Of a DNA stretch of 64,000 bases, positions 1,552 to 63,960 are shown in pieces (within the stretch, counting starts at the first letter, position 1; each line of letters opens with the position of its first letter). The translations under genes were made by a program, and so were the position numbers. Origin of the DNA: Psammoneis japonica. Its lineage: Eukaryota. The stretch lies in the NCBI GenBank assembly GCA_008632985.1, contig QPGO01000144.1, positions 62,001 to 126,000 of the forward strand. Reading direction: 5' to 3'. The notes beneath the pieces are model-generated. The model ran no database searches, was not told the origin of the DNA, and saw nothing but the letters and a program-made list of their open reading frames with translations.

Positions 1552-2709
1552 TTGATGAAGTTCAAGCCAAACTGGAGCGGCAAAGAGAGGTCACTTTTTC
1601 ATGGCAATCACATTTGTTTTTTGTCTGATTGTGCTGACATCATCACATTGATTTCTTGTTCTAACAGGAAGAAGGCCGCCGGTGATTTGTTGTCATTCGC
1701 AATGAACAAAAGTGACGATTGCGAGGAGGAGTCAATTGACCAGAAAACAAGCGAACTTCCAACCACTTGCATGGGTGAAGAGGACAAAAGCGAAGAGCCT
1801 GTTGACAATGAGCACAACCAAGTTGCACATTGCTCCGAGGGTGAAGAGGACCACAGCGACTTGGGAGGTTGTTTCGCAAGTGACAAAACTAACGGGGAAA
1901 CACACAATGTGCTGTGGTTGGGGATGACCCGTCCGCTCAATGCAAGGCAACTATCTTCTCAAGAATTGTGCTCTGAGAAGGGGGTGGCCTTAGCATCGTC
2001 CAACCAACACAGGCGAGACGAGGCCCGCACAATGGCATTTGAGGAATCTAACAAAACAATCACAAACGTCGTTCCAACAGTTTCTCTCCAAGACGGCCAT
2101 CCTGATCTGCACTTAAATTGCAATGTGAAAGCAAGAGATTTCATCAAGAGAGTCAAGCAGCAGTTTGAGAAACTTGTTGATTTCGACAATCATGGGTTCG
2201 ACCAAATCATGTTGGACTGCTGCTGGATGCCAGATGGAGAGTGGTGCGACAGTTGTTTTGGGACGACTCAATTTTTCCAAAATCTGGTTGATCTTCTGGC
2301 CTTGCTCTCCAAAAACAAAGAAGGGGGGGACATGGTGATTCCCTTTGCTCTTGCAACCTTCTTCCAGGTTGTCAAACAATGGAAGAAATTATTGGCTGTG
2401 TTCGACATGTGCACAATGGACAATGATGCTGCAAAGAGCCGTGCGAGCATGTTCTTTGCAAGCAACCTTGTGGCCCAAGAACAACAAGAACGGTGGTTGG
2501 GAAAGCCTTCCGATCAGGAAGAAGCTCATCTTGGAGTTTCCAAAGAAGACATCAGAACAAAAGCAATGAAAGGTGCTCGTGCCGCACTGCTTCACGTGCA
2601 CCACAATGACTTTGCCAATTCTGAAAGGATCAAATTCATCATGTTTGCAAGAAAGAGCCAGGAAATCACTGTGAGTGAATGGCAGATTGATGCGCGCATC
2701 CCATTTTAG
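1552..2709 (+). pseudogene. Hypermutated TE-associated ORF with possible class I SAM-dependent methyltransferase-like fold
   Basis: 385-aa Tyr-free ORF. Motifs VLWLGM, FDQIMLDCCWMP (restorable to FDQIILDYYWIP) and FFQNLVDLLALLSKNKEGGDMVIP. The 3' end runs into the element starting at 2667. Confidence 0.4.
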
Positions 2710-5017
2710 AAACAAATCTGACCAACACTTCCTTCTGTCCTGTGCAGCCCAAACAAACAGGGCCTTTTCTTGTGCTTCTGCCACTCCTGGACATTCTTCA
2801 TAAACCAAAACATTGTCCCCAATTGCTTCGACAGGGACAACCCGTGACTCAGGTGAGCACTGAGTCTTCTCAGGCGTTGAAAGCCAGTTGTTTTGTTTGT
2901 GATCAAGCTGCCAGCGACTGACCAAGTCTGCATGCTGATGCTGTTGCCTCACAGTTCTCTGGTCAATGTTGACAGGGCCTTCATCAAGACTCATGCTCGT
3001 CGTCCTTGTCTTGTGGATGAGAAGGGAAAAGAAGAACAACACACAAAAAATGGCGGGAAAATGGCAAACATTACATTGTCTTCCAGATTTTGATAATTCT
3101 TGCAGGTGTGACGTGTCTGCATTTTGATTTTTTATCTGGCATTTACAATGAATGTTGTTCTTTTTTATTTGCTGTCAAAATGAAGGACATCATCTCCGTT
3201 GAAACCCAATGACAGCCACATCAAAAAGTGAGTTGGACTGTTCATTGTTGCACACAAACACATTTTCAAATTTCAATGTCACTGACAACAATTTGTGCAA
3301 TGTCACAGAGAAAAACAGAGTGGCTGGCTGTCTCAACACGACCCAGATGACGGTTGCACTGTCAAACAGCAACACTGCTCTCATTGTTGCTGTGTGAAGA
3401 TCAAGATGTCGTCTTGAGCACCACCGGCAAAGAAGAGAAAGAAAAATGAGACCATTGAGCCAATGAGCCCAAGACTTCAGGCAGTGTTGAAGAGAACAGG
3501 TGCGCAGGCAGCGCATGGTGCATTGAAATCAGAAGCAGAGAAGGTGGCCAGAAATGATCTCTTTCCACAGGTGAAGTTTCTCAGTCCATCAGAATTGGCA
3601 AGTGATGGGAGCGTCTCAATGTTTGTCAAGAAACAGATTGCTGGTGGCAACATGGACACTTCAAATTGGTCAGGAACTTGGGAGGAATGGGCAAAAAAGG
3701 CGGTAAAAAGGCAAACCAACAATGGCAGAAACACGGTGTGTTCGGCCATTGGGGCGGAGGCAATGGCCCGCAAGTCAAGTGACCAATGTGTGTGATTTGA
3801 GAGTTGTGCGCATCTCACAAGAAGATGACGGTGATGCTTTGTCCATGTGGGCATTGTTGCTGAGGAAGAGGGAAAGGAAAAAGAAAAGAAACTCAAGGCG
3901 GCAGTCAGGAGGAAAAAGCAAAGCAGGAAAAAGTCAAGCCGTGACAAGAATGAAGAGAATGACATCCCGTTTGTGCCGACATGGGATCCGTTTAGCCTGG
4001 GCACTGTCACCGGCGGCAAACGAAGGAACAAGCAGGCATGCAAGTGGTTCTGTGATCACATCCCACCTCAAACCAAGCAAAAACAGGCACGGAGCAGCAC
4101 CGTCAAAACTGGGAATGCACAGGTCTCACAGTTGTTTGCGGCAGGTGACGAAGCTTTGGCGCCATCAGCTGTGGAGAATTGTTGGCAGGTGTGGGCATGC
4201 AGGAACAAGGAGGAGGCGGTGGAAGAATTGGGTGAGGAAATGGAGCCCGAAGAAACAAGGCCTGCCCCTCGGTGCACGAAGCCAAAGAAACAACGAGTGA
4301 CTTGGGGAGACGACGGAATCATTCGGTTCAACCATTTGCACAAAGAGGTGACGAAAGACAGAGACTCCAAGGAGGGCAAGGAGTTTGAAAAGTGGCATGT
4401 GGAGATCAAGAAAAGTGAGTGCAAGAAGTCCGGAGAAGCAAAAAAGAAGAAGAAGATGGCACCGACCGGTGACACGGAGAAGGTGAAGGCAATGAACAGC
4501 CCAATGGTGGAGAGCAGCAGGGACGACAATGGCAATGACGATGAGCAGGAGGAAGGCGCAAAAGGCAAAACGAATGATGGAGGAGACGATTCCGATGAAG
4601 ACGAGTCCAATGAAGACGAGTCCAACAATGATTGTCAGCTCAGTTTAAGAGAGTTGTAGCAAGAAAATGTGCACACAGTTGACACAGCACTCGGTCATTG
4701 CACTGCAGATGTAACAAGGAATTGACTTGACCGATGAAATGTTTTTCTCGTTTAAAACAATGTTTACGAAAATTGACAAACCAAGGTTTGTGTGGCAATG
4801 CAATCGCGCATTGGCATGTGGCAACAAGGTGGAGGCAGAAATGGTGATGTGGACACAGTGAAAAACAGCATGCACAATTCTTAACAAGTTGTTGCAATGT
4901 TGGCACACCAAACTTGCAACCAGAGGTTGGCCTGTCATCACATGACAACAAAGTTTTGCAATGTTTCAATGAATTGTCATCATGCAAATCTACACATTTT
5001 TAACATTTTGTGCACTC
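2667..5017. mobile_element. Internal-deletion derivative of the Plavaka/CACTA-like element at 29965-35698
   Basis: 2667-2965 aligns to 29965-30263 and 2966-5017 aligns to ~33679-35698. About 3.4 kb containing nearly all of the transposase is missing. Confidence 0.85.
3406..4659 (+). pseudogene. Element accessory ORF2 (copy 1), one intron ~3770-3849
   Basis: PAKKRKK NLS-like start, LFPQVKF..W..NGRN.V and WF.D..P..EALA...ENCW blocks, acidic tail, TAG stop at 4657-4659. Splice donor degraded to gcaagt. Confidence 0.65.
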
Positions 5018-5101
5018 TTGTGTGGCGCTCTTGCCGCTTCTTTGTCCTCTCCCCTGGATGAGACATCTGAAGAGCTCACCTTGCCCCCGGATCTGCCCGC
5101 T

Positions 5102-5493
5102 GATGGGTTTCAGCCCCAGGCGGGACTTCGTGTGACATTGGCCCGTGAATTCTGCGTGCGAGCTCCACAGCAAATTTGTGCTGCAATGAAAATGTGAATG
5201 ATCGCCAACAGAAAAAGAGGCAATTTTGCAAACGCATCTCCTCCTTCATGCTTGGAGCACATCAACAATGGTTTGCCCGGGTGTGTTCCAAAGACATCAA
5301 AGAGTGCACCCAGCGTGTTTTCATTCTCATGGCTGTTGAAATGGAAAGCCTTTGGCTTTGCAAAACAGGGAGTGTGAAACAATTTCACAGAACACAACAC
5401 GTGGAAATGCAGTGCACGACATGCGACGCGATCCAAAAATGATTGATGTCACAGTGCAGCAGTGCAAGGTCCCACCTGGAGCTGGAATGCATC
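5102..5493. mobile_element. MITE, GTTCCAG-TIR family (subfamily B), 392 bp
   Basis: Termini gatgggtttcagccccaggcggga / tcccacctggagctggaatgcatc. 4-bp TSD cgct/cact. Homologous to 63462-63859. Confidence 0.8.
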
Positions 5494-5499
5494 CACTGT

Positions 5500-9525: not shown

Positions 9526-9746
9526 GACGCGTTCCAGACGTAGGTGGGAATCCGTGTGACATTGGGCCCGTAGACTTCTACGTGCGAGCTCCGCAGCAAA
9601 ATTGCACGGCAATTAAAATGCCAATGATCGCCAACAGAAAATGAGGCAATTTTGCGAACGAACAAACTCGCACATGATTGAAGCACATCATTTTTTACTT
9701 GGCCAGTTGCATTCTTCAGACATTGAAGAATGCAACTGGCGCATTG
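9526..9746. mobile_element. Truncated MITE, GTTCCAG-TIR family (subfamily A), inverted relative to 31981-32376
   Basis: Starts gacgcgttccagacgtaggtgggaatcc, the reverse complement of the right part of the 31981 copy. Second TIR absent. Confidence 0.8.
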
Positions 9747-9933
9747 ACATTCTCACAGGATTTTGCTTTCTCCTGCAACCTCTGGGCCTCCGCAGAGTCA
9801 CACCCACTGTTTCATCCATGACACCTGACATCTGGAGGCCATCAAGACCAAGATCGCCATCTCCTGCAAGGTCTGTTTCAGCATTGTTGTCATTGGATTT
9901 GCCATTGCCAAGAGAGTTTCTTCAATGTCCGAA

Positions 9934-24913: not shown

Positions 24914-24978
24914 CTATTGCAAGTCAAAGTGAAGACAAATCAAGATGACTAGCTATAGGTCGCATACGATACTGCTCC

Positions 24979-26660
24979 TCACATCATTGTGAACGTGTGT
25001 ACAGATCCGGATTTCTCACCATTCGAATCGCGCTCTCTCGAACCAACTACAAGAGTTGTGCCGTTTCCTGACAGCGAAATGGACGATCCAAAGTAGTCTC
25101 CACTCTAGCCGCTCCATTTAATCGACCGCCAACTTGAACCCAATCCTTTTTGCTTGCATTGTATTGAAATGTGACGACTTGTCCAGCATTTGTCCGTCCA
25201 TCAGCATCATGTATAGGTAGCTCCCCACGGCAAGAATGCTTCCAGTTCTGCTCAAGGACACGGCTGCACCAAATCGTTCGCCGTGTTGCTGACTCAAGAG
25301 CGGCGAACCACGTACGTTGTGCCCACGTGGCCGTTTCGCGGTCCAGCGTGTAAACTACGACTCTTCCAAGAACCGTGCCGTAAAAGACATGTCCCGGTGC
25401 ACCCACAGCCAAGATCAAACCCGTGTCATCCAGACAACTTGAACACCCAAACAAACCTTCGGCAACTTGTCCAACAATGGGAAAGCCGAGTGGTTCCCAA
25501 AGCGACGATGAAACATCATGCTCGCACACGTGGACTTGTCCCGAGGCATTTCCACCCAAGTCACCAAAGTGAGCACCAATCGTCACAATCGTTCCCTGGC
25601 CATTCAAGGAAATGGACACGCCAAAGCGGTCGCCACGTGCTTGTCCAAGCAAAATTTGTCCATGTTGGTCCCAGGAGCATGTGTCGGCATTGCAGCAAAA
25701 CAATTTTGCAGATCCGGAGCTGCTGCCATTTCCAGTGTCATCATTGGGAGCTCCAATGGCGAGAATGCTCCCCTCTTGTGACAGTGACAGGGAACATCCA
25801 AAACCACTGCTGCTGCTGCCAGTGGTGTTCCCAACAATGCCCTTGCTGATCTGGTGCCATCGCTGCGTTGCAGGGTTGCACCTGTGCACTTGAACACTGC
25901 CGACATCATTCAGTCCCCCGCTGTCACTGCATGTTGCTCCTGTTGCAAGAATCGTTCCATCAGGACTCAGCACAATGGATCCTCCAAACTCATCACCATT
26001 GGCTGCTCCCACCAATTGTTGACCCAGCGGCATTCAAAGACTGTCATGACTGTGGCACAAGACAGACACACAGCCGGGGTGATGAGAAGAAGGAAGGGCT
26101 TGCGATGCTCCCACAGCAAGGATTGCACCATCATGTGACAAGGAAACGGCTTGACCAAACCAAATGGTCAGGAGATTTTCCAGTCAATTCTCTAGTCCAC
26201 GTTGGAGCCAGGTTTGGATTGTGAGATTCAAGACTTCCTCATCATGAGTCAGCAAGAAGGACAAGGAGTTTGGGGTCCCAGTCATTGGGGGTGCATGTGT
26301 TGATGGCACAATGGAAGGTGACACGGCAAAAAGTCTCTTGGGGGAAACAGTGGGCTCCAGAGTCTGCTCCAGATTCTGTCCATTGTTGCGGTTTCTGGCT
26401 TCATTGTTGTGATCGTTTCTCAATGACACCGGCACTGCAATCGCCAGCACAGCAACAACAACAAAAATCAAAAGCACAGCAACCCCCGCAAAAATTGTGA
26501 AATGATTGCATCCTTGTCACACAGACACACTCCATCAGAATGGCAAGACGATTCATTGGCGTCCTCCTTTGTTGACAACGAGTTCACGGTTGATGCATGT
26601 TGTGCATTTGTTCTTTGTTCTTTGGCACAAAATTCCAATCTGAAGATGGCATCATCGCTT
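24979..26660 (-). pseudogene. FG-GAP-like beta-propeller membrane protein gene, 5' three-quarters hypermutated
   Basis: Repeats GDEFGGSIVLSPDGTILATGA and GDRFGVSISLNGQGTIVTIGA, TM LLIFVVVAVLAIAVPV. Frameshifts. Tyr is lost at coordinates above ~25390. Confidence 0.8.
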
Positions 26661-26977
26661 CTTTGTTTGCCACCCAGCCATGCTTGTCAATCAACAAAAT
26701 CAAATCAAATGTGTGTTGGAATGCGATTGATGAAGTTTGGCAACAATTGCACAGTGCTGCAGCCTCAATTCCACAACCACTTTCTTCTGACAGTGAGCAT
26801 GGTGACAAAATGCCGAGCCCGCTGCTGCAGTGCTCCTTGTCACCATGGCTGCTGTGCCAGAAAAGAAGGACAATTGCGCCGGCATGGTTGCCTTTTGTGA
26901 GACTGTGTTTTTGATTTCACTCTGCGAACAGCAGACCACAGCCCATCTTTTGATGTGTTTTCAACCCAGGTGGGTCA

Positions 26978-27186
26978 CAATGGCAATCTTTTATGCTGCA
27001 GAGTCATTTGCACAGAAATGTGCAGAACATTTGCAAAAATGCACCTGACCCGACAACAGTCAAGTCCATTTTTGCACAAATTGTGTGAACACAACAGTTT
27101 CAGCACAAAAACGTGTGGGTTCTGCAGGCATCCACAACTGTTTTGTGCTTTTTATGTCACGGGTCATTTTCGAAAGATTCCCATTG
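26978..27186. mobile_element. MITE, CAATGG-TIR family, internally deleted
   Basis: Termini caatggcaatctttt / cgaaagattcccattg. 3-bp TSD tca/tcg. Lacks one arm of the internal palindrome. Confidence 0.8.
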
Positions 27187-28997
27187 TCGGGGACAATGCA
27201 CGAGGTTTTCTGCACATTTCCATGTGACACACACTTTTTGCACCACAACAGTGTGCAATTTTTGAGCTCCCACATGATGCCATCTTTTTTTCATGCCTCA
27301 CCCACAAACCACAAATCGCGCACACCAAAAATGGCGCCATGCCGCTGCCATGAACTTGACCATCCTTGCACCATCGTCCACAATGACAAAGAAGGTGAGA
27401 ATGCCAAAAGATGTCAATGAGACTGAGGTCAATGTGATGATGTGGTTGAAGCTTTGATTTTTGCCATTTGTTGTGTCTTGTGGACACCAGCCTTTTTCCT
27501 CATGACATTTTTTATGCCAATTTTTCTCATCCTCAGATTGCGATGCGGCATTCTTTGACACGCAAGGCTCTGTTGACTTGATGCTTCATACACACAACAA
27601 TGCATGTCTTTGTGATGTGTCAGTGTGATTTTTATGATGCATTGAGCACACTTTAAGTTGGCGTGGATGACACTTTTGGGTCAAGTGCAAACATCAAACA
27701 TTGGCACCAAAAAAAGAATGATTTTCTGCATTCAGTTTTGAGGGCGCATGGTGATGAAGAAGCCACTGGATGAGTCCAACAGGTGCAACATTGTAAAGCA
27801 GAACAAAAAAAAGTGACATCTGTGTGTTGCATCCATTTTGCTTTGTTCTGAGGTGGAGCAGGTCAATTGCACATGTGGAAATGCTGTCTGCATTTTGTTG
27901 TTGCCACATCAGAGTGCACGACATCGCAATGTCTGCACGCATGACAAAATTACATTGCTGCATTGTAAAATTTACTTGTCTGCACATGATGGTTTTTGTC
28001 ATTTGGCCAATTGTCAATCTCCTGCCATTCTTCATGTTTGAACACAGGTGCTTTTTAATTTTCATGCTCAGCCTTTTTCACAACAACCAACGATCTTCAA
28101 CGACAAGCCAAACATTGCAACTGCGTGCAATGAAATTTTCATCATGCAAAGTGTGCGCTGATCATTCAATCAACAACTGTGCTCCAATTGGCCCATTCGT
28201 CCACATTGTCCTCTTCATTCCACATGTCTTGTCCGCTCTCTTGCAAGAATTTCAAATGTGCCGCTGCCGTGTTGGATGTTTCCTCATCACTGTTCCAAAA
28301 AAGCCACACTGCATTTCTTGCATTTGGGTGAACATCATCGAGAGGAAGAGGTCCCTCGAAATGCAGAATCGCATCACTGCTCCCCTCTTGACGTCGTGTC
28401 GTCTGCTTCTTTTTCTCTTTCTTCATTTTGCCCGTCCCATTTTTCTCTTCCTTGTTCATCTTGGCGCCACCTGTTTTCACCATCTCTGGCGTCTTTCCAT
28501 CCGAATCCTTCTTTTTCATCGATCCCGTCGCTGTCGCCTTCATCGTGTGTCACTTTGTTTTGGATCCATGTTTCTGACTTCTCTCTGTGTTGTCTCCATT
28601 TCCGAATGTTTCTTTGTGATTGTTCGCACACATCACTTGAAGGCACCCACGTGTTCTTCACGTGCCTTAAAGCGCATGTAGAAATCCATGTTGTTTTCCA
28701 GCACATGCACCCTTTCTCCTGATGCATGTTTGCACAATGTTTTCTTCCATCAATTCTGCACTCCGCATTGCCCTTTCCCAGCATGATCTCACGCAGGATT
28801 TCTCTGGGAGAAGTCACATGCGCGTCTGGCTGGTTTTTGTGTTTAAAACTCCAAATCCCATCAGGCGCGCATGTGACTTCTCCCACCACTCTGGCATGTT
28901 TCCACAGAAACCAGAATTTTGTGACTGACGCACGACCAATCTGGTGAATGCAATGGCGGACCCACGACCACAACAATCAGAGCATTAGAAGAAAACC

Positions 28998-29897
28998 ATG
29001 TCAGATGAACTCCGTCCATCCAATGATGAGGATTTCCGTCACTGGATGACGGAGACAGTTGATGGTTTTGTTCACGCTGACGCTGCTCGTTGTTCGGAGG
29101 AACAGAGAGCAAAGGATGCAAAGGCTGCTGTGTCAAGATCGGCGGAAGCAATGGCAGAAGCCCATTGTGCGTTGTGGCTGCAACGACCGCACTTGAGAGT
29201 GCTTTGTTAAATCAAGCAACAACCACTCGCGAATTTAAGCACACCCATGCACAGTGCATCAAGTCATCGATCAAGACACACTGTTCAGACAACGACCATG
29301 TTGTTGCAGTGGAAAATTGCAGCAAAGCAGAAATGAGTTTCCAGCACTTTCTTCGCGGCAACGCATTTGATGCAAAAGAGCTGGGGCTCCCAATCTCCAT
29401 TGCGGGACACAAAAATCAGAATGTGGGCTAAACATGCTGCACAGCCATGACTCGACGTTGCTTCTGAGAAGCCTCAGGGCAAATTCTGACACAGACACCA
29501 CAAGAGCAGCAGAGAGGGAGTTTTCTGCAATTGACAGCATCAACAAATCCATCCACCACCGTGCCGTGCCACTCCTTCAAAGGCGACATCTAACACAGCC
29601 GCAGCACATCCTGAAGGACACAATCACGTTGCTCCACAAGGCCCTTGACGATTTGACAAGGAAAGACGTTGCCTTGCAGTGACTTTGCATGATCTGAGGC
29701 CAGGCACAGATCAAATGTGGGGAGGGACATGGACCGCGATCCGGGCTGTGGATGAAGAAGCCATGGCAAGAGAAAGGGTCCTGCAGCTGGCATTGCAAAT
29801 TGAGGCACAATTGGTGGCTGTCAACCAGCCTGACCACAGCGCCGACTTTCAGCAGGCAATTGTGGCTGCCAGGGAACATTTCATGGTTGCAGGATGA
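28998..29897 (+). pseudogene. Broken helical ORF of unknown function adjacent to the transposase 3' end
   Basis: Consecutive protein-like fragments (MSDELRPSNDEDFRHW..., AIRAVDEEAMARERVLQLALQIEAQL) in shifting frames, Tyr-free. Confidence 0.3.
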
Positions 29898-29998
29898 CTG
29901 AGTGGACCATGCAAGTGGACACTGCATGGAATCTGTGAGGAAGCAATTGCTCTGAAACTGCACACACTGTGAGTGAATGACAGATTGACACACGTGTC

Positions 29999-32900
29999 CT
30001 GTTTTAGAAACAAATCTGACCAACACTTCCTTCTGTCCTGTGTGGCCCAAACAAGCGGGGCCTTTTCTTGTGCTTCTGCTGCTCCTGGACATTCTTCACA
30101 AACCAAAACATTGTCCCCAATTGCTTTGACAGGGACAACACGTAACTTGGGTGAGTGCTGAGTCTTCTCAGGCGTTGAAAGCCAGTTGTTTCATTTGTGA
30201 TCAAGCTGCCAGCAACTGACCAAGTCTGTGTGCTGATGCCGTTGCCTCACAGTTCTCTGGTCAGCTTGACAAGCAGTTGGATGGACCACTGCAAAAATCG
30301 ATCCTGTGTCTTCCTGTTCAAAGAAACACAGCAAACGGGAGGGAAACTGTTGATCGCCCTTTCGTGTGCCAAAGGTCACACAGGCAAAGTCATGCCATGG
30401 TCCTTCACTTTTGCAATTGGGGTGCGCACAGCAAACATCCCTCCCGTTTGCATTGCAAAACTCTGTCTTGCAAGTCAGGTGTGTGTTTTCACTGTCTTCA
30501 CCAACACAATCCTCCCACTTTTCCGACATGAAGTTTGGCAACACAGGATGAACTTGGCAACGAGCATGCTCACTGTTCCACTCAAACGTCACAGCGCCAA
30601 TCCCTCGGTTGCAGGTGAGAGTGAGTGCACTTCCTCCCAGTGTGTGATTGTCCATCCTGACTCTTGATGATTCCTTTTTCCCAGTTGGCAAAATCCAACT
30701 GTCAGCTGAAATTGCGGCATTGAGCCTCATTTGGTCCTCCACATGCGACACGACCTGCTTCAGAAAACTGTTGAGGTTGCGTTGTTGTGTGGCAGATGAC
30801 GGCAGCTTGAAAAAGTCTTTCAAGAGACATTCCCCCAAGCCTGCGTCAAAGTTCATCGCATGTTGGCAATGACAAAGAAACACTGGGAGATGGAGTGTTT
30901 CATGAAGCTTTTGAAGCTTTCCCCCACATCCTTCTGTTCGCGGGACGAATTGCACTGTCCGGTCAATGAGGAGACGGATTTTCTTGTGTGTTTTCTGAAT
31001 GGATGAACTGGGAGTTGCGCTTGTGATGGGTGGATTGCCTAGCCTGCACCATGCGTGGAAGACAAGAAGGTCCTCAAGCAATTGAATGAATTGCTGGACG
31101 CTGCAGTCAAGTCTTTTTCCCTTGCATTTTTTCTTTTTTTGGTTGTCGTCACCATCCTCAGCCTCACTCTTCTCTTTCTCATCCTCATTTTCGTCCCAGT
31201 CACCCTCTTTGGACTCCTCTGACCTTTCATCATCAGAGTTGTCCAAGCACTCACTAGGTTGGTGGCAACTCTCAAAGTTTGCTTTGGGCATCTTGCGATT
31301 CTCTGGAACAATGGGTTTGTCTGCGTCCTCGTCAAGGAAGCATGACTCACATGCGTTTCGTCCCTCGCTGGTTGACAGGAGAAGGCAGAAAACAAAAGCC
31401 ATTCCAGCCCAGTGGTGAGAGTTGAGAAAGGCAAGCAACGTTGCTCCTCCTTTGAAGTTTGTTTGCAAAAAGGATGCTTTGCAAGTTGACCGGTGATTGC
31501 TGAAAATCCTTTCCACCATGCTGTCCACCTCACTTGCGACCACAGGTGTCATGCTGTCTACAAATGAATTGATCACCCTTTTCAAGGTGCCGTTTTCAAA
31601 GAGATGCATCATGTCGATTGCTGTCGCAAGGGTGATGCCACATGGTTGTGCACCAAAGTCTGCCTCAAAAAGACAGTTGGCAGGTGCGCTGTGTTGCTTG
31701 AGGCAATGCAAGATGCCCAACCAGTGCTTCCTTTCTTGGTCTGATCTGTTGTCGTCGTTGGCCTCAGTTTGCACTTGGTGGAGATCCAGTCCCAGGACAA
31801 ACTTGCATTCAATCCATGGGTCGTCCAGTTTGTTGAAGCCAGCGAGGCAAAAACGACAGCAACGTTGACGACAGTTGTGACCTCCGCATCGTCCAACGAG
31901 ACAGTCGCCACTTTTTGCGTCTCCTGTGATGAGAACGATCAGTGGGATCACATGGAGGTGTCGCATCTCATCCCCTCGTCGACGCGTTCCAGCCCTGGGT
32001 GGGAGCTCGCAGTGCTGACGTGTGACAACAACAATTTTTGTCATCCGTCACATGTTTCGTACGCAGATTTCTACGTGTGATGTTTAAAAAAAATTGTCCA
32101 GACTCGCTGTTTTGCAAAGCCCCAGACGTTTTATATGACAAATTTATAGAAACAACAATGTGCCAGTTACATTCTTCAATGTCTGAAGAATGTAACTGGT
32201 CAAGTAAAAAATGATGCACTTCAATCATGTGCGAGTTTGTGCGTTCGCAAAATCGCCTCATTTTCTGTTGGCGATCATTGACATTTTAATTGCCGCACAA
32301 TTTTACTGCGGAGCTCGCACGTAGAAGTCTACGGGCCCAATGTCACACGGATTCCCACCTGCATCTGGAACGCGTCCGTCGCACGCATGTTTTCATGCCT
32401 CCTTTTCTCATGACTTCCAAAAGTGGCTCCAAAACAACGTGCAAGCAAGTGTGGCAGTCTCTTGACGAGCGTCCCTTCTCCGCCTTGTGATTGTTTGAGA
32501 GATTCTTTGCCGCAGATGACGACATCTTTTCCAAGTCCAGGAGACAACCAATTGGTTTCCAGACATTCTTGTCCAACCATTTGTGAAGGCAACATGCGCA
32601 GAGGTCATGATCACTGGCTCTCCGCAATGTGATCCCATCCCTTGTGTCCTGCCAGTCTTGTCGACGTAAATGACATTGCACTTGAGAAATTGTTTCTACG
32701 GGTCAGTCATCCGTTCTTCACAACTGCACCTGCACCACTCACCCGCCAAAAGGCACTTGTCATCCGGTCCCTTCGCTTTGCACTTCCCAAAAGGATTGTC
32801 TGGATCGGCCACATTCTCTCTGCTGCGCCACAGGTGAGGATCAAGCAAAAACTGTTCCCAAACCTTTGTGAAATCCCATCTTGGCACTGACGCTCGTTTT

Positions 32901-33700
32901 GGCAAACCGGTTTTGAAATTTTTGGTTTCTAGAGTGACAGGAACAGACTTGCTGGGTGGAAGAGGGAAATGCTTGGTTAAGGTGCGCATCAACTCTTTTC
33001 TCCTTGGCAGAACTGCACCAAGCTCAATGTTGCTGTTGCCAGTGTGCCTCTCAATGAAATCAACAATGCAGTCGCACAATTCCAGGGGAGCACCACATGT
33101 GTCCATGAGCTTCTTGCACAACTCTGCGCAAGCTCCGTCAAGATTTGTCAAAGAGGGAGTGGAAGCCAAGCCCTCTTCTGCAGGAGCGTCACACCTGATC
33201 CCCAAATGTTGGTCCTCATCATTGATGTCCTCTTCCTCCTCCATTGTCACGCCCAACACTGCAGCAAAGGATTGACCACCGCCAACATCCAAATCGTTCA
33301 TTGCTGAAAGTTCAACTCCTTGCATGCTGTGGTTTGATGAAACAGAGGACATGTCATCCATTCCGTGCGGTGCATCATCCAGGGAGGGGAACAAGGGGCT
33401 GCTGCTTGGATCACTCATTGAAGATCTTGGGAATCTGCTGCGAGTTGATCGCCTTGGATGGGATTCGTCATCATCAGAGGATGAAGAGGAAGAGCTGCCG
33501 CTTTCTTTGGGTGGCCCCTCTGTTGTGGCAGGAATGTCACTTTGATCTGGGATTGGATCTTGGGTTTGCAACTCTTGGGCAACTGAGCAACACGTCGGCG
33601 AGCATCTCCAATGGCAGGCCATTCGCAAAAACCACAACCGGGACAGAGAAGAGGGTTTCCGTCCATTGCAAATCAGACAACATTGACAGGGCCTTCATCA
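29999..33700 (-). pseudogene. Plavaka/CACTA(CMC)-like transposase, near full length, interrupted by a MITE
   Basis: DKTG...GEPVIMT, WKPIGCL, RDCHTCL, LIVLITGDAKSGDCLVGRCGGHN..CRFC, DMMHLFENG, KLQKLHETLH...NFDAGLGECLLK, CCAHPNCKSEGPWHDFACV, FPSRLLCFF, WSDLF. Family assignment is from remembered motifs, not a search. Confidence 0.8.
31981..32376. mobile_element. MITE, GTTCCAG-TIR family (subfamily A), 396 bp
   Basis: Perfect 12-bp TIR gacgcgttccag/ctggaacgcgtc and 4-bp TSD cgtc. Removing it restores the transposase frame GGMKTCVRRGDEMRHL. Confidence 0.95.
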
Positions 33701-34118
33701 AGACTCACACTCGTTGTCCTTGTCTTGTGGATGAGAAGGGAAAAAAAGAACAACACACAAAAAATGGCAGGAAATTGGCAAACATTGCATTGTCTTCCAG
33801 ATTTGGATGATTCTCACAGGTGTGACATGTCTGCATTTTGATTTTTTTTCTGGCATCCACAATGAATGTTGCACTTTTTATTTGCCATCAAAATGCAGGA
33901 CATTGTCTCCGTTGAAATGCAATGACAGCCACATCAAAAAGCAAGTTGGGCCATTCGTTGTCACACACAAACACATTTTCAAATTTCAAATGTTGCTGAC
34001 AAAATTTGTGCAATGTCACAGAGAAAAACAGAGTGCCTGGCTGTCTCAACATGACCCAAATGATGGTTGCACTGTCAAACAGTGCCGCTCCTCTCATTGT
34101 TGCCGTGAAAAGATCAAG

Positions 34119-35339
34119 ATGTTGTCTCCAGCACAACCGGCAAAGAAGAGAAAGAAACATGAGACCATCAAGCCAATGAGCCCGAGACTTCAGGCAGTGT
34201 TGAAGAGAACAGGTGCGCAGGCAGCGCATGGTGCATTGAAATCAGAAGTAAAGAAGGTGGCTAGAAATGATCTCTTTCCACAGGTGAAGTTTCTCAGTCC
34301 GTCAGAATTGGCAAGCAATGGGAGCGTCTCAATGTTTGTCAAGAAACAGATTGCTGGTGGCAACATGGACACTTCAAATTGGTCAGGAACTTGGGAGGAA
34401 TGGGCAAAAAAGGCGGTAAAAAGGCAAGTTGACAATCGCAGAAACACGGTGTGTTCGGCTGTTGGGGTGGAGGCAATGGCCCGTAAGTCAAGTGACCAAT
34501 GTGTGTGAATCGAGAGTTGCACGTGTCTCACAAGAAGATGAGGGCGATGCTTCATCCATGTGGGCGTTGTCACTGAGGAAGAGGGAAAGGAAAAAGAAAA
34601 GAAACTCAAGGTGGCAGACAGGAGGAAAAAGTGGAAAAAGTCAAGCCGTGACAAGAATGAAGAGAATGACATCCTGTTTGTGCCGACATGGGATCCGTTC
34701 AGCCTGGACACTGTCACCGGCGGTAAACGAAGGAACAAGCAGGCACACAAGTGGTTCTGTGATCACATGCTGCCTCAAACCGAGCAAAAGCAGGCATGGA
34801 GCAGTGCCATCAAAACTGGGAATGCACAGGTCTCACAGTTGTTTGCGGTTGGTGACAAAGCTTTGGCGCCATTGGCTGTGGAGAATTGTTGGCAGGTGTG
34901 GGCATGCAGGAACAAGGAGGAGGCGGTGGAAGAATTGGGTGAGGAAATGGAGCCTGAAGAAACAAGGCCTGCCCCTTGGCACACGACGAAGCCAAAGAAA
35001 CAACAAGTGTCTTGGGGAGATGACGGAATCAATCGGTCCAATGATTTGTGCAAAGAGGTGACGAAAGATGGAGACTCCAAGGAGGGCAAGGAGTTTGAAA
35101 AGTGGCATGCGGAGATCAAGAAAAGCGAGTGCAAGAAGTCCGGAGAAGCAAAAAAGAAGAAAAAGAAAGCACCAACCGGCAATGCGGACAAGGTGAAGGC
35201 AATGAACAGCCCAATGGTGGAGAGCAGCAGGGACGACAACAGCAATGATGATGAGCAGGAGGAAGGCGCAAAAGGCAAAACGGACGACGGAGGAGACGAG
35301 TCCGACGATGATCGTCAGCTTAGTTTGAGAGAGTTGCAG
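34119..35339 (+). pseudogene. Element accessory ORF2 (copy 2), divergent from the transposase
   Basis: Highly similar to 3406-4659. Donor gtaagt at 34483 is intact. The stop TAG has become CAG at 35337-35339. Confidence 0.65.
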
Positions 35340-36099
35340 CAAGAAAATGTGCACACAGTTAACATGGCACTCGGTCATTGCACTGCAGACACAACAAGGG
35401 ATTGACCCAACTGATGAAATGCTTTTCTCATTTAAAATGATGTTTGCAAAAATTGACAAACCAAGGATTGTGTGGAGATGCAATCACGCATTGGCATGTG
35501 GCAACAAGGTGGAGGCAGATGTGGTGATGTGGACATGGTGAAAAACAGCACACACAATTCTTGGTGAGTCATTGCGATGTTGGCACAGCAAACTTGCAAC
35601 CAGAGGTTGGCCTTTCATCACATGACAACAATGTTTTGCAATGTTTTGACAAATTGTCATCATGTAAATCTGCACATTTTTAACATTTCGTGCACTCTGA
35701 TGCACTGCTTCTGCTCATCAAATGACTCAATCACTCTGCATTCATCAAACTTTGTTGCTGGCATTTCGGTGCTGGCGTGCAACTGACTCAAGACTCCCAC
35801 ACAGGTTGACAGATCAGCCGATCTTTGAAACAGCGGATCGCGCAAAAATGCACATGCAAAGTCAGTTCCCCCGATTTTTCACATGCAAAAAATGGAGTTG
35901 GAATGCTGTTTTTTTCAACATGAGCTCTTCACACAACAGAGAATGCGGACATCCTTTCAAAACAGTCAAACTGGACAAAAGAAACAGAGAAACAGCGACT
36001 CAAAGTCATTCAAAAAACTGCCGCGCGCAGTTTCCCGTCATTTTGAGACCAAAAAATTGATTTCGAAAGAGCTTTCTCTTTTTGTCCGCACCCTCCAAC

Positions 36100-36427
36100 C
36101 AGTGGCAATCTTTCGTGCTGTGGAGTCATTGTTTCATAAATGCGCAGAAATCATGCAGACCAATGCCAGCAAAAATGTGAAGTTGTCTGTCCATCTGCCC
36201 TCAGTGAGCTTCAATTCTGCAAAAAATGGACTTCACTGCAATTTGATCAGGCACACTTTAGAACAACACATTTGCAGAAATGTGCCTGATCAGTTAGCAG
36301 TGACATCCTTTTTTGCAAAAGTTTTGAGAAGACAACAGTTTTGGCACAAAAATGTGTAGATTCTGCGGACGTCTGTGAGTGATTTGTGCATTTTGCATCA
36401 TGGGTCATTTTTGAAAGATTCCCATTG
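36100..36427. mobile_element. MITE, CAATGG-TIR family, diverged copy
   Basis: Termini cagtggcaatctttcg / tgaaagattcccattg. 3-bp TSD aac/aac. Confidence 0.8.
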
Positions 36428-36597
36428 AACAAAGAAGGCAGCCGGTCATTGAAAATGAACAGATCTGATGAAAGAACAAGCAAAAAATTGGGGGAAAGCA
36501 TGAGCTCAGATGAGAATTTTTTCTCGCACAAAAAGCACGGTGACGGAAAACATGCAGACGCAATGTGACACCCTCTTGTGCACTGCGCGCATGACCC

Positions 36598-37178
36598 ACC
36601 TGGAACACTGACAAAAATGTCACCAACACAGAAAAACTGCAACATTTTGCACACAAATGAGACAATTCTGTGCACTCTTAAAGCCTCGCTTGTTTGTGAA
36701 ATTGCCCCATTGAACAATTGCATGTCGCCAATGTTTGAGAGACACATTTTTCTCAAGTGATCGGGAGTGCTCTTAAGTGTCACATCGTTTGTCTCCATTT
36801 GTCTCCATTTGTCTCCACTTGTCTCCACTGTGGACTGTCTCCGTTTGTCTCCATTTGTCTCCGTTTGTCTCCATTTGTCTCAGTTTGTCTCCGTGTGTCT
36901 CCGTTTGTCTCCATTTGTCTCTGTTTGTCTCCATGTGTCTCCCTTCTCTAAAACTCACATGCACACAAAAAGACACTTAAGAACACCATGTGTTGCTTGA
37001 GGGCGGTTGGTGATTTTGGCGACATTGTCGAAGTGTCACATGGAAAACAGTGATTAAAATTTATTCAATGCAGTCATTTGCACACCAAACAGATTGCAAG
37101 ATTGCACTTGATTGTCTCATGCAGATGCAAAATGTCTCAGTTTTCTGTTTTGGTGACATTTTCATCAGTGTTCCTGGG
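36598..37178. mobile_element. Foldback-type element: ~190-bp imperfect inverted arms around a minisatellite
   Basis: ggaacactgacaaaaatgtcaccaacacagaaaaactg..acattttgc mirrors gcaaaatgt..cagtttttctgttttggtgacattttcatcagtgttcc. Inner pairs are atgagacaat/attgtctcat, atgtcgccaa/ttggcgacat and cttaagtgtc/gacacttaag. Confidence 0.75.
36788..36943 (+). repeat. 10-bp minisatellite (tttgtctcc[a/g]), ~15 units
   Basis: Directly visible tandem array. Confidence 0.95.
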
Positions 37179-40100
37179 ATGAAAACACATCTTTTGTGCA
37201 CATGGGAGGCACGTGCCTGTTGTGATGAACAAGGGAGTGGAATGCCAAGAACCAGCTTCAGAATGTGGTGTTCACTGAAATCTCTTTTTCTCACTCCTCA
37301 CTGCCACAGCCCACCCAGGAGCAATTGAGTGCTTGGCATGGGAAGCCAACAAATTGATGGGCGTGACTGCACAATGCCCCATCTGGCCTTGCTCTGACAG
37401 GAGTGATGATGGAGACACATTCTGTCTGGCAGAAGTCACATTGGCTCACAAGAAGAATGTGCAAACCTGACCCTTGGTTCAAAGACTTGCGGCCATGGTT
37501 GCATGACTTAATTTTTGCTCCACAGGCCTTGCACTGAGACACCACTTTGGAAAATGCAGATGCCCGCATTGGGCACCTGTGTGCCAGCTGGGTTTTGTGT
37601 CAACAGTGGGGCACTCAGGCTGAACAAGAGGAAGTGCTTGATTGGCATTGGCCACTTGGAGCTGCCAAAGGTTCCCTGGAATGCAAAGATTTGCACACAT
37701 GGCATGTGAGGGTTGACATGCTGCCATGTGGGGATGGAGATTTGCTTTGCTTGTTGAGCTGCAATGTGTCATGCATTCATGTGATTGCACAATGAACACA
37801 GTGTAAAAATGTCATGTTGTGTGCAATCTGCACAAAACACACCACATGCATTTGCTTGTTGTGAGCAAATCTCCGCCGGTGGAGATTTGCTCCAAGAGTG
37901 TGACATCAAGTGCTCCATTGTGACAGCAGCTCATCATAAACTTCATTGTCAAAGGTTGAGATTTAGTTCCTCTTTGTTCACAGATGAAGTGTGCAAAAAA
38001 CCGGTGTTAAAAGTCAACATTGAACTTTCTACATTGCAAAAACGGCCCCCCAGAGTTTTCTGCAAATGCACGCTCCAACACAAAATCACATGAATTGTTT
38101 GTTGTCCAAGAAGTTTGAGAACATTTTGTTCAACACATTTGTGATGTGAGCAAACAAGTCCAGTGGTTGAAGGGTCAAAATGCCATCATCATTGACAACA
38201 TTCCTGTCAAGATTGGTGGCAACAGCATGGGCTGCATTGCTTTGAATGTTGCTTTCCTTTTGCCCAGTGTTGCCAGGCCTGGACACAATTTTGCATGCTT
38301 TTGTTGATTTCCTTCACAACATCTCCAGTCAACCCTTGAATGGCTCAAAAGTGTGCAAGAATCTCACCCCACACTGGATCATTTGCAAATCGGTTGCCAT
38401 TGTTCAAAGTCTTTGCAGACAAACAGTGGGTGCCCTTGGATTGGTGGCAAACCACATCTTCACCTTTGTCAGTTTGTCAAGAATTGGATGACAAAGCACA
38501 AAGACAACAAAGAAAAGATGCAATGCCACAAATGAGGTTCACTCTGAACAAGCATCAGTTGCCCCAAACAAAAAGTGATCAGAGCATTTTTCTCCATTTG
38601 CAAGTGCAAAAAACAAACAGTCAGAGCTTTGCTCTGTTCAAGCCACAGTCAGAGCAACATGCTCTATTTTTAAGACAAACAGAGCAAGATAAAAAGAGTT
38701 GCTCTGTTTGGCTGAAATCAGAGGATGCCTCTGATTGAGCCCAATTTTTCAGAGCCAATGCTCCAAGTGACTCGAGTCTCATTGGACCTTCCACATTTTC
38801 AGAGCAAAAAATTTTTTTCACATCAAAGAAACAACCCAAATGTGCAAGATGAAAATGCAACACGCAAATTGTCATTGATGCACAAGCATGCACACTGCAC
38901 ACATGTGTTCCACACATGCACACAACATTGTCATCAACGTCCATCATCATGTGGTGAGCACCTTTCTTGCTCTGCATGTGTGTGTGTGTGTGTGTGCCAT
39001 GTGGCATTGTCTGACATGTGTTTTGCCCTGCACACACACAATGACACAGTCTTCTCAGTTCTCAGTCTTTGCAAGCTGTTTCCATCTGCAGGCATGGCTT
39101 TTCCTGAGAGGCTCACATGCAAAATTGGCTGGTCACTTGACCAATCTGCAGCATTGTTTTTGTGCAGAGTCAAGCTCATCTCTTCTTTTGTGGTTTTGCA
39201 TGTTGATGTTTTTGCTTTTGCAAGCACTTTTTTTCAAGGCAGCCATGCCAGGTGGGCTTTTTGTGCTCAATGAATGTGGCACAAGCCATCATTTTCTAGG
39301 GCCTGCCACCCAGGCATCTCTTCTCACACAAACCCTGGGGTGTGTGTGCCTTGCTTGGGGGGGCTTGTGGGGNGGGGGGGGCACCATGACTTCTGTGGCA
39401 TGCACCCTGGCCCAGTGCACTGCTGGTTTTGACAACAAACCATCAAACAATTGCTGCCATTGCCTTGTGCAATGCTGGCATCAAAGTTGCCTCTGCTGAA
39501 ACCCAGGTGCAGCGTGGAGCCTCGCCACCACATTGGCAGCCCTTTTGTTCAATCTCCTGGCCCACACTGGCACCCTTGTTCCAAGCAGCACCCAGCACAT
39601 GTCCATTCTTGCTCTTGCCCTCTCCTTCTCTCTCGGCTCCTCAAAAAAGCAAGTGCCTCCTTCGCTGAAGTTCTGGCTCCTCAGGGCTTTTTCCACAGCT
39701 GACCTGACCAGGTGTCTCTTCAGAGAGAGAGAGAGAGAGAGAGAGCATTGGTGACAAGAGAGTGCAAAGCACCAAGTGACAGAGGGCAATGGTTGGGCAA
39801 TTGTGCAGCACAGATTAGAAGCCAACAAGTGAAAGTGGTCTGTGCCTCCCGCCTTGCTCAAATTGGTTTTTCTCGTGCGGCTGCCTCAGCATCAGCCGAG
39901 TTGTCGTGCACGTCATGGAAGCAGCGCCAAAGCAAGCTGCAGCACAACCTTGCTTTTCATCTTCATCAATGTTGCACTGCATGTTGACAAGCAGAGAGCA
40001 AGCTTTGCCAGGAATGAGAAAGGAGAGGGGGGCGAGCAATGCAGGAGGGCAGCCACCACTCAGCTGCTGCTGGCAACCATGGGCTGTCTTGCAGCTTTTG

Positions 40101-40362
40101 GGTCAAAAATGGCAAGACCCAACCCTGCGGAAGGCAAGCCCAGGGCTGGCAGTGGCAGGCTGTGCTGGGTGAGTGCACCTTGCTGTTGCAGGCATCTCAG
40201 AGATGCACCTCCGCCATTTGCGGGGCTTTGTGCGCACTGGCTGCAGGTGCCCACGCTTGCACTGGGGCTGCACCCCCCTTCAGCCCCACAGCTTTGGTGC
40301 TGAGTTGCAAACAGTGATAATCTCAACTCCCAGCAATGGCAACTTCATGGTGTTGTGGTGCC

Positions 40363-63162: not shown

Positions 63163-63960
63163 GATGCGTTCCAGCCCCAGGTGGGAGCTCGCAGCACTGA
63201 CGTGTGACAACAATGATTTTTGTCATCCGTCGCATGTTTCGCACGTAGATTTCTGCGTGTGACATTTAAAAAAAATTGTCCAGACTCGCCATTTTGCGAA
63301 GCCCCAGACGTTTCACACAACAAATTTGTAGAAACAACAATGCGCCAGCCACATTCTTCAATGTCTGAAGAATGTAACTGGCCAAGTAAAAAATGATGTG
63401 CTTCAATCATGTGCGAGTTTGTGCGTTCGCAAAATTGCCTCATTTTCTGTTGGCGATCATTGACGGGTTCCAGTCCCAGGTGGGACTTTTTGTGACATTG
63501 GGCCCGTGGAATTCTGCGCGCGAGCTCCGCAGTGAAATTGTTGAGCAATGGACACATGAATGATTGCCAACAGAAAAAGAGGCAATTTTTGCGAACGTGT
63601 CTCCTCCTCCACACTTGAAGCACATTCTTTGCAGCATGCCCGGGTGTGTTCTTTAGACACCAAAGAACACACCCAGCGCATTTTTGTTGATGTGGGTGCA
63701 GATGACAGAAAGCCTTTGGCTTCGCAAAACAGGCAGTGTGGAGCAATTTTTTGTGATGGAACACGTAGAAATGCACGTGTGAAACATGCGACGGGTGACA
63801 AAAAAACAATCATGTCACAGCTCAGCAGTGCGAGGTCCCACCCAGAGCTGGAACACATCCATTGACATTTTGGTTGCCGTGTGATTTCACTGCGGAGCTC
63901 GCATGTAGAAGTCTGCGGGCCCAATGTCACACGGATTCCCACCTGCATCTGGAACGCGTC
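63163..63960. mobile_element. MITE subfamily A carrying a nested subfamily B copy
   Basis: TIR gatgcgttccag/ctggaacgcgtc, TSD cagt/cagt. 798 bp minus the 398-bp insert minus its 4-bp TSD equals 396 bp, the length of the 31981 copy. Confidence 0.93.
63462..63859. mobile_element. Nested MITE subfamily B, 398 bp
   Basis: Termini gacgggttccagtcccaggtggga / tcccacccagagctggaacacatc. TSD catt/catt. Confidence 0.9.

Follow-up and report, generated by a model that had tools for sequence, protein, structure and literature searches.

A young MITE within a TpA-poor transposase relic of the diatom Psammoneis japonica suggests prolonged or repeated TA-to-TG/CA mutation of mobile DNA

We propose that a long-lasting or many-episode process changing TA to TG or CA acted on a transposase gene of the diatom Psammoneis japonica, that a MITE then inserted into this gene, and that the MITE family was hit afterwards; we hold this order of events to be probable. 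The locus lies in a window of 64,000 nucleotides (assembly GCA_008632985.1, contig QPGO01000144.1, positions 62,001 to 126,000), in which the MITE occupies exactly positions 31981 to 32376 and is nested, as the initial annotation had stated, in a transposase relic almost without TpA (14 TpA in the 396 bp of the MITE versus 12 in 4 kb around it). In the proposed sequence, the MITE, a non-autonomous DNA transposon with a 4-bp target duplication, would have inserted into a Plavaka-like transposase gene from which a local TA-to-TG/CA process acting at the DNA level had already erased most TpA, and the same process would later have acted on the MITE family. We infer that the host erasure mostly preceded the insertion, and that part of the loss in the nested copy (c31981) arose at its present position rather than in the copy from which it derives.

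Table 1. Features of the nested MITE, its host element, and the other MITE copies in the window
Feature	Position	Strand	Remarks
Host ORF downstream of MITE	30194..31978	-	595 codons, 0 tyrosine; relative of Plavaka-type transposases
Host ORF upstream of MITE	32382..32702	-	107 codons; aligns to P0004 residues 222-267
Host transposon copy 1	29965..35698	-	limits given by homology with copy 2
Host transposon copy 2	2667..5018	-	internally deleted, without equivalent of 30264-33682
MITE copy c31981	31981..32376	+	396 bp, young subfamily, 14 TpA, 23 CpG
Target duplication CGTC, left copy	31977..31980	.	4 bp; also contigs skipping exactly 400 bases
Target duplication CGTC, right copy	32377..32380	.	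4 bp
Left TIR core GACGCGTTCCAG	31981..31992	+	arm similarity reaches ~36-47 bp
Right TIR core	32365..32376	-	
Internal palindrome	32163..32199	.	perfect 16-bp arms in c31981
MITE copy c63163, left part	63163..63461	+	5 TpA
MITE copy c63163, right part, beyond nested insertion	63860..63960	+	1 TpA
Old-subfamily MITE nested within c63163	63462..63859	-	target duplication CATT, 2 TpA
MITE copy c9526, truncated, young subfamily	9526..9746	-	5 TpA; TACG kept in right arm
MITE copy c5117, old subfamily	5102..5493	-	0 TpA; target duplication CGCT/CACT, one CpG-type change

The ends of c31981 are GACGCGTTCCAG and CTGGAACGCGTC, and 12 of the 12 terminal bases are complementary. Excision of c31981 together with one CGTC (400 bases) leaves the minus-strand frame open across the junction, and contigs of a public run jump exactly 400 bases at this site; therefore, some copies of the host element lack the MITE. 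The family shares with MITEs its small size (391 to 398 bp), noncoding sequence (no ORF of ≥150 codons lies wholly inside c31981), TIRs, target duplications, five copies in the 64-kb window, and deep coverage by family contigs, with a summed contig depth of 48,732 to 406,997 over the MITE versus 2,006 to 8,652 over the flanks (depth not being equivalent to copy number). Perfect 4-bp target duplications surround three full copies (CGTC, CAGT, and CATT), and that of the fourth carries one CpG-type change. CAGT flanks c63163 at 63159-63162 and 63961-63964, and positions 63860-63863 are the duplicated CATT of the MITE nested in it, which has ~70% identity to the young subfamily. These 4-bp non-TTAA duplications indicate no particular superfamily. 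A search of the 64-kb window with the end motif gave 12 matches, 8 of them at MITE ends and 4 elsewhere, the number expected by chance, and revealed no autonomous partner with MITE ends; pattern scans of metagenomes found no MITE copies. The internal palindrome is disrupted in its left arm by TTA>CCA in c63163, and both arms are altered in c9526, where the changes compensate each other.

Judging by its relatives, the host of the MITE is a Plavaka-like transposase relic. The host ORFs of the window had no match when queried directly against Pfam; the match to PF18759 is seen in the relatives P0004 and P0010 (E = 3e-8 and 2e-8, respectively), with which the window ORF aligns across the PF18759 domain and past it, and the P0004 residues aligned to the upstream ORF fall within the Plavaka domain match of that protein. 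Neither a matching inverted repeat nor a target duplication was found for host copy 1, whose left homology edge begins with CACTG, and its limits are set by homology alone.

The MITE stands out from its surroundings in both TpA and CpG. c31981 contains 14 TpA where 30.5 are expected (observed/expected ratio [o/e], 0.46) and has a CpG o/e of 1.18, whereas its left and right 2-kb flanks contain 5 and 7 TpA (o/e of 0.04 and 0.05, respectively) at a CpG o/e of 0.5; for TpA, 14 in 396 bp versus 12 in 4,000 bp corresponds to a Fisher odds ratio of 12.2 (p = 6e-9). The surrounding 15-kb depleted block (25500-40500) holds 77 TpA, and the 14 in c31981 are the biggest cluster there. In kilobase bins, the depleted blocks of the window (1-11.5, 25.5-40.5, and 56-64 kb) have a TpA o/e of 0.00-0.26 and a CA/TG o/e of 1.4-2.0, compared to 0.56-0.58 and about 1.1-1.2 in genic DNA, and CpG o/e is 0.11-0.8 in the repeat blocks versus about 1.0 in genes. 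The three young MITE copies carry 35, 15, and 23 TpA per kb versus 0-4 in their flanks. Within the depleted DNA, residual TpA climbs with residual CpG (Spearman rho of 0.41, p = 3e-4, 72 bins 500 bp wide), and the pooled TpA o/e rises from 0.040 to 0.238 across the CpG classes; the surviving TpA are strongly YTAR. Genic duplicates at 24233-25052 and 42665-43496 are unmutated and have 27 TpA in common.

The alignments indicate that the direction of mutation is TA to TG/CA, that is, A:T to G:C at TpA. Between host copies 1 and 2, there are 46 CA-versus-TG discordances, 19 sites with TA versus CA/TG, and 31-32 transversions in 2,311 bp, and because of the 46 discordances, the two copies must have been erased independently in place. 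Pairwise TA versus CA/TG differences are symmetric and give no direction alone, which would leave room for the opposite polarity, in which the TpA-free state is original and RIP-like C-to-T changes at CpA/TpG have newly created the TpA of the MITE. A working transposase, however, cannot lack tyrosine, and 14 of the 16 tyrosines of P0001, the closest relative, align to cysteine (11) or histidine (3) in the host ORF. Likewise, sites 32168 and 32304, at which TA, CA, and TG all occur among the three young copies, require a TA ancestor, the discordances between the host copies require a third ancestral state, and in c63163, a change on the CA side disrupts the palindrome that is perfect in c31981. 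RIP-like gain of TpA was rejected on the tyrosine changes, the host-copy discordances, and the three-state sites, and we give the opposite polarity virtually no credence.

Family contigs were compared at 10 listed places in the MITE where c31981 has CA or TG; there, the alternative letter gives TA if its neighbour is unchanged and accounts for 35-91% of the family contig depth, in letters that come from one public run, 51 of the 91 variable places lying outside this list. The contigs probably derive from the assembly's own sample, and alleles and paralogues are not separable in them. The 9 sites at which c31981 and c63163 differ as CA versus TG could partly derive from CpG; the family contigs contain the TA-giving letter at 5 of them. 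Runs of TG or CA on one strand, counted by eye in c63163, gave no sign of a strand-processive burst (~10 versus ~10 expected). As for the chemistry, adenine deamination in TpA, or a thymine-directed change, would explain the pattern; since TpA reads the same on both strands, the two would leave identical footprints.

The comparison of MITE copies suggests that the process also acted after the family had spread. c31981 and c63163 differ at 37 positions, which represent 28 events (9 CA versus TG, 10 TA versus CA/TG, 6 CpG-type, and 3 other transitions), with neither transversions nor gaps across the 396 bp. Nineteen of the 28 events are TA-type, and two of the three other transitions are TAA>TGG beside a mutated TpA. 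The sequence strings quoted in the initial annotation are all present; c63163 does show CA or TG in place of TA of c31981, and at 9 dinucleotide sites, c31981 itself has TG or CA and c63163 the opposite form. The statement that the MITE keeps its TpA thus describes the 14 that remain, but its ancestor had at least 25, of which c31981 has already lost at least 11, including those at 32064 and 32360, which another copy has kept. At the host-pair rate, 0 transversions in 396 bp has a probability of 0.004, which indicates that the young MITE pair is younger than the host pair. At 24 comparable TpA, c31981 retains 14 and c63163 retains 6 (p = 0.039; losses of 10 and 18), c9526 retains 5 of 11, and the two old copies retain 2 and 0; the proportion lost is ~44% in the c31981 lineage, ~75% in its sister copy, and 92-100% in the older copies. 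Per site, c31981 has lost 11 of 25 TpA versus about 4 of 27 CpG; in this DNA, TpA is lost several times faster than CpG. A single ancient event is insufficient, because the older host copies were erased independently, yet the MITE pair with 0 transversions has also lost 10 and 18 of 24 TpA. Prolonged or repeated TpA-erasing action, which the initial annotation had preferred to one ancient event, is thus supported by the independent erasure of the host copies together with the mutation of the young pair.

The higher TpA content of the MITE might reflect shielding instead of youth, the MITE having been present through much of the host erasure but hit less, either by escaping a silencing mark or guide that steers the mutator or by coming close to a lower size limit, comparable to that met by short repeats in fungal RIP. 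Both kinds of decay are weak in the MITE (CpG o/e of 1.18 versus 0.5 in the flanks), as expected for escape from a common silencing state, and mutated tracts elsewhere in the window end sharply by position, with TpA losses of 14:0 in a tandem pair. However, copies of the same length have been erased to 2 and 0 TpA, so that neither the family nor its size confers immunity; the young pair, free of transversions and gaps over 396 bp against 31-32 transversions in 2,311 bp of the host pair, shows an age difference independent of targeting; and the three young copies sit in different depleted blocks and are all partly mutated. We consider shielding unlikely, in its general form and in the variant invoking a mark, a guide, or a minimum length alike.

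A recent burst of uneven intensity, hitting the old host elements and the young MITEs at the same time, would be compatible with the fact that the copies give no absolute dates, and fungal RIP can dose different repeats very differently in one cycle. Such a burst would nevertheless have to remove ~90-95% of the TpA of the host versus 44% in a 396-bp island and 75-100% in copies of the same length elsewhere, and it does not account for residual TpA tracking CpG decay over 72 bins. In the only experimental system, the alga Bigelowiella natans, changes accrue few at a time over generations, as far as the preprint describes them (Mettrop et al., bioRxiv 10.64898/2026.01.13.699255). One such burst therefore strikes us as highly improbable.

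A further reading places all losses of c31981 in its source, the process being episodic and over at this locus, so that the graded series would reflect source lineages and not time in place. Some losses were certainly inherited: c31981 and c63163 carry a derived TGCA in common where c9526 keeps TACG, a difference between the copies that the initial annotation had described correctly, and the B. natans process operates in some lines only, according to the same preprint. The 9 CA-versus-TG sites at 0 transversions, however, still require a mutator after the recent spread of the family. We regard this reading as having an outside chance; even under it, the mutator acted on the MITEs later than most of the host erasure, and therefore repeated action stands.

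The long-lasting or many-episode process that we favour does not by itself make TpA content a dating tool. The initial annotation had likened it to an insertion-age clock; the graded series of loss supports this coarsely, and inherited losses, effects of position, differences in site sensitivity, and the small comparison set (five copies, three of them of the young subfamily, all inside the 64-kb window) keep such a clock from being established. Since the shared TGCA came from a mobile, already mutated source, some losses do not date the insertion, and part of the 11 losses in c31981 may predate it. In the tandem repeat at 19018-19333 and 19867-20180, all 14 TpA losses fall on a single copy; therefore, place counts besides time, and tract position can outweigh age. 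The YTAR survivors imply that sites decay at different rates and that the signal saturates quickly. CpG-type changes (3 in c31981 and 3 in c63163) and transversions (0) do not rank these two full-length young copies, and in the MITE-in-MITE nesting, the inner old-subfamily copy has 2 TpA and the outer c63163 has 6, which runs against a naive clock, albeit nonsignificantly (p = 0.24). Among 15 repeat pairs of ≥250 bp in the window, transversion divergence and TpA retention were uncorrelated (rho of 0.005, p = 0.98); we treated this null result as uninformative, since the pairs include both untargeted genic repeats and comparisons across subfamilies.

RIP, known from Neurospora and other fungi, changes C to T at CpA, makes TpA, and lowers CpA/TpG in repeats. 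The process in the window resembles it in mutating repeated or mobile DNA, ruining transposase genes, accumulating over rounds, and sparing neighbouring genes, but the chemistry and direction are opposite, as TpA is lost here and not raised. The genic duplicates are untouched, and therefore, unlike for RIP, duplication alone does not set the process off. In methylated transposons, CpG decay results from deamination of 5-methylcytosine; it too yields TG/CA, is confined to the repeat blocks, and explains 6 of the 28 events that separate c31981 and c63163, but it cannot remove TpA, which is lost faster per site.

The closest counterpart is B. natans, in which integrated giant-virus and virophage DNA undergoes TpA-restricted hypermutation, and the diatom process appears to match it. 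As described in the preprint, the same TpA signature accrues in real time in mutation-accumulation lines, with new mutations in clonal growth at ~1,000 times the background rate, and its authors propose adenine deamination in TpA, with an ADAT2-like adenosine deaminase as the hypothetical agent (10.64898/2026.01.13.699255). On that description, both systems have A:T-to-G:C changes at TpA that give TpG/CpA, TpA depletion with an excess of CpA and TpG, and restriction to particular foreign or mobile regions beside normal genes, the mobile targets in our window being the Plavaka-like transposase relic and the MITE copies; in both, accumulation seems to be stepwise and not constitutive, on the diatom side as judged from sequence comparison alone. 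The systems differ in organism (a diatom here, Bacillariaceae-like in our analysis, and a chlorarachniophyte there; the word diatom is absent from the main text of the preprint) and in targets, with multicopy transposons and 400-bp MITEs here versus two integrated viral regions in B. natans, of which the preprint confirms only the giant-virus region to be single copy (10.64898/2026.01.13.699255). Erasure is near complete here (TpA o/e of 0.01-0.1) versus 0.45 reported for B. natans; CpG loss accompanies TpA loss in the diatom blocks, unlike in B. natans as described; and the diatom survivors are YTAR, whereas the preprint's main text gives no flank preference.

TpA-specific hypermutation of mobile DNA is known from a single preprint of 2026 that deals with one distantly related alga, and our literature search found no report of it in diatoms. 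The nested MITE orders the events at one locus, with the host probably erased before the insertion and the insert now partly erased itself, and such a relative order is the type of evidence needed to tell a long-lived process from the fossil of one event. The copies also provide a first rough comparison between the rates of TpA loss and CpG decay, together with a warning that TpA content is not simply age, since copies go on moving after being mutated, location has an effect, and site sensitivity differs. More tentatively, and with less than even confidence in the whole, the process may still be running and may target chromatin domains and not repeats as such, with the MITE family serving as a natural time series; TpA loss per site would then be about fourfold over CpG decay, RTAY sites would go first and YTAR sites, above all TTAA, last, and MITE lineages would persist because their transposition, still possible with mutated ends, outpaces erasure. 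If this is true, one genome would suffice to measure the rate of a new eukaryotic DNA-editing defence and to derive its rules of sequence choice and targeting.

The c31981 element belongs to the MITEs and has a target duplication of 4 bp; once the element and one CGTC are removed by script, the minus-strand frames to its left and right fuse without interruption. Two public-run contigs aligned to the region lack exactly 400 bases at this site, which indicates that the host element also exists in copies that lack the MITE; a third contig skips 404 bases there, with four other letters in between. A family profile search of the window returned five copies and nothing else, and 8 of the 12 window matches to the terminal motif are ends of this family, the remaining 4 being the chance expectation. 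The copies studied here are these five only, all within the 64-kb window: three of a young subfamily (c31981, c63163, and c9526) and two of an old subfamily that is ∼70% identical to the young one. The family is clearly abundant, with summed contig depths of 48,732 to 406,997 over c31981 versus 2,006 to 8,652 over its flanks (depth does not equal copy number); metagenome scans gave no further family copies. Two private transitions of c31981 lie outside TpA and CpG decay, at 32254 (C versus T in 99.9% of the family contig depth, creating a CpG) and at 32200 (T versus C in 99%).

Coordinates of the MITE copies, their Plavaka-like host element, and related features in the window
Feature	Position	Strand	Details
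MITE c31981, young subfamily	31981-32376 (396 bp)		ends GACGCGTTCCAG and its exact reverse complement; CGTC on either side
MITE c63163, young subfamily	63163-63960		full, split by nested insertion
MITE c9526, young subfamily	9526-9746		truncated
Old-subfamily MITE, nested in c63163	63462-63859		duplication CATT
Old-subfamily MITE	5102-5493		84 bp past end of host copy 2
Host element, copy 1	29965-35698		surrounds c31981
Host frame around c31981	30194-31978 and 32382-32702	minus	no Pfam match of its own
Host element, copy 2	2667-5018		without equivalent of 30264-33682, the region of the transposase frame
Tandem duplication, ∼530-bp unit	19018-19333 / 19867-20180 (with 19663-19869 / 20203-20410)
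Depleted blocks	1-11500, 25500-40500, 56000-64000

The host frame has 14 database relatives, 4 of which contain the Plavaka transposase domain PF18759. Because the piece upstream of c31981 aligns with residues 222 to 267 of the protein P0004, within that protein's Plavaka domain match, the MITE interrupts a transposase-like gene. Tyrosine is absent from the 595-codon host part, versus 2.2 to 3.2% in the relatives, and where the closest relative, at 60% identity, has its 16 tyrosines, the host has cysteine at 11 and histidine at 3, corresponding to TAY becoming TGY or CAY, which fixes the direction of change. Host copy 2 is an internal-deletion derivative. The alignment of both host copies over 2,311 bases contains 46 sites with CA in one copy and TG in the other (termed CA-TG discordances herein), 19 sites with TA against CA or TG, and 31 transversions (32 in the blast alignments). 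So many discordances indicate that the host copies lost TpA independently, in place, after separating.

In the three repeat blocks, observed/expected (o/e) ratios per kilobase are 0.00 to 0.26 for TpA and 1.4 to 2.0 for CA/TG; genic DNA of the window has TpA o/e of 0.56 to 0.58 and CpG o/e of about 1.0. Single N characters occur at 39373 and 56107, each within a depleted repeat block. The initial annotation described c31981 as a MITE that keeps its TpA inside a TpA-poor transposase, and the contrast is borne out: the element has 14 TpA (30.5 expected; TpA o/e 0.46, CpG o/e 1.18) versus 5 in the left 2-kb flank (0.04 and 0.51) and 7 in the right (0.05 and 0.47; P = 6 × 10⁻⁹). It is the biggest TpA cluster of all three blocks, and c63163 and c9526 are two of the eleven others. 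Although those 14 TpA are retained, c31981 is not pristine, having lost at least 11 of a minimum of 25.

The graded loss is visible among the copies themselves. Between c31981 and c63163, 37 positions are different and represent 28 events: 9 CA-TG discordances, 9 sites with TA in c31981 and CA or TG in c63163, 1 site of the reverse kind, 6 CpG-type changes (3 in each direction), and 3 further transitions, including 2 in which TAA became TGG beside a mutated TpA, with no transversions or gaps. Two double changes of TAA to TGG (TTA to CCA) are found in c63163 at the equivalents of 32167-32168 and 32287-32289; the change of a base beside a mutated TpA may mean that the process sometimes extends beyond TpA. 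Sites 32168 and 32304 read TA, CA, and TG across the three young copies, for which a TA ancestor is the only simple explanation. At 10 listed CA/TG places of c31981, a letter read in the family contigs would give TA (35 to 91% of depth), provided that the neighboring letter is unchanged, and its presence at 5 of the 9 CA-TG sites makes a CpG origin of those 5 unlikely. From a minimum of 24 ancestral TpA in the two full copies (25 with one site kept in c9526 alone), c31981 retains 14/24 and c63163 6/24 (P = 0.039), c9526 retains 5 of 11 covered sites, and the old-subfamily copies have 2 and 0 TpA. Per site, TpA loss is several times faster than CpG loss (in c31981, about 4 of about 27 CpG versus 11/25 TpA). 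In the c9526 equivalent of the palindrome 32163-32199, a mirrored TpA is changed in both arms (TA to TG in one, TA to CA in the other) with pairing kept; because each site has two possible outcomes, chance alone gives this in half of cases.

At the transversion density of the host pair, the chance of no transversions in 396 bp is 0.004, indicating that the young MITE lineages are much younger than the host copies. Since their split, c31981 and c63163 have lost 10 and 18 of 24 TpA, respectively. Had the host been exposed only over this period and at the same rate, 25 to 58% of its TpA would remain; its actual retention is about 0 to 13% by three measures, namely, 0 of 16 tyrosine codons, a TpA o/e of 0.045 versus 0.57 in genic DNA, and about 12 to 13% computed from the host-pair counts. 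The simplest reading of these sequences is that the bulk of the host's TpA loss would have come first, the MITE then inserted, and the process continued afterwards. Supporting this order, residual TpA rises with residual CpG when depleted DNA is divided into 72 bins of 500 bp (rho = 0.41, P = 3 × 10⁻⁴), with pooled TpA o/e of 0.040, 0.056, 0.068, 0.093, and 0.238 over rising CpG classes; CpG decay may share this targeting and is thus not fully independent as a clock. The independently erased host pair and the continued losses in the younger MITE lineages agree with the repeated or continuous action initially proposed, and sequence comparison thus supports a prolonged or repeated TpA-erasing action.

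A quantitative insertion-age clock, also proposed at that stage, is not shown. As had been noted, c9526 differs from the other two young copies, with TACG versus TGCA at 32360-32363 (the CpG at 32362 is kept in c9526 alone); the common TGCA means that one TpA and one CpG loss were inherited from a mutated, still mobile source, so that TpA content at a locus combines inheritance and local loss. Position matters as well. In the tandem pair, all 14 TA versus CA/TG sites have TA on the first copy, with none reversed, and at many CpG kept by the first copy the second reads CA or TG. The second copy sits in a ∼750-bp TpA-free tract (about 19650-20400) with normal DNA around it. The mutated state has an abrupt, position-dependent boundary here, and the pair's 14:0 difference means that sequences of equal age can differ completely. 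A small repeat (19339-19656; copies at 36105-36430 and 26983-27186; internal palindrome 19445-19537) is inserted in the first tandem unit and keeps 12 TpA that are lost in the 36105 copy, which lies inside a depleted block.

Sites also differ in sensitivity. The 125 TpA surviving in depleted blocks (young MITE copies excluded) are mostly pyrimidine-TA-purine (YTAR), with TTAA at 39/125 versus 44/938 in genic DNA and CTAA and GTAA at 24 each, whereas ATAT (0), ATAC (2), and GTAC (1) make up 3/125 versus 293/938 (chi-square P = 8 × 10⁻³⁰ for survivor versus genic contexts). The near absence of RTAY and survival of YTAR points to a mutator with a flank preference, and this bias implies that decay has no single rate and saturates early. 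The nested old-subfamily copy has 2 TpA versus 6 in the surrounding c63163 (P = 0.24), and with the window's 15 repeat pairs taken together, no retention correlation was found (rho = 0.005). Duplication alone is no trigger, since a genic duplicate (24233-25052 and 42665-43496; 87% identical) shares 27 TpA with 0 CA-TG discordances. An ORF beside its first copy (25050-26033) matches FG-GAP and Kelch repeats, and a BEACH-domain gene at 46-52 kb has its best named relatives in Nitzschia, Pseudo-nitzschia, Cylindrotheca, and a Bacillariaceae species (72 to 77% identity), by which the sequence would be placed in a raphid pennate diatom.

Fungal RIP, by its generally known features, is a functional analogue with the opposite direction. 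A literature search found no report of TpA hypermutation in diatoms. The kind seen here is known from one preprint, on Bigelowiella natans (Mettrop et al., bioRxiv 10.64898/2026.01.13.699255), where mutation-accumulation lines gained 231 changes in two integrated viral regions; all but one were A to G or T to C, and these 230 all fell on TpA and in some lines only, at about 6 × 10⁻⁷ per site per generation, with an ADAT2-like deaminase as the hypothesized agent. The word "diatom" is absent from the main text of that preprint, and no flank preference was found in it, in contrast to the YTAR survivors of the P. japonica window. With the caveats on the clock, the c31981 locus supplies a nested time marker for TpA erasure.
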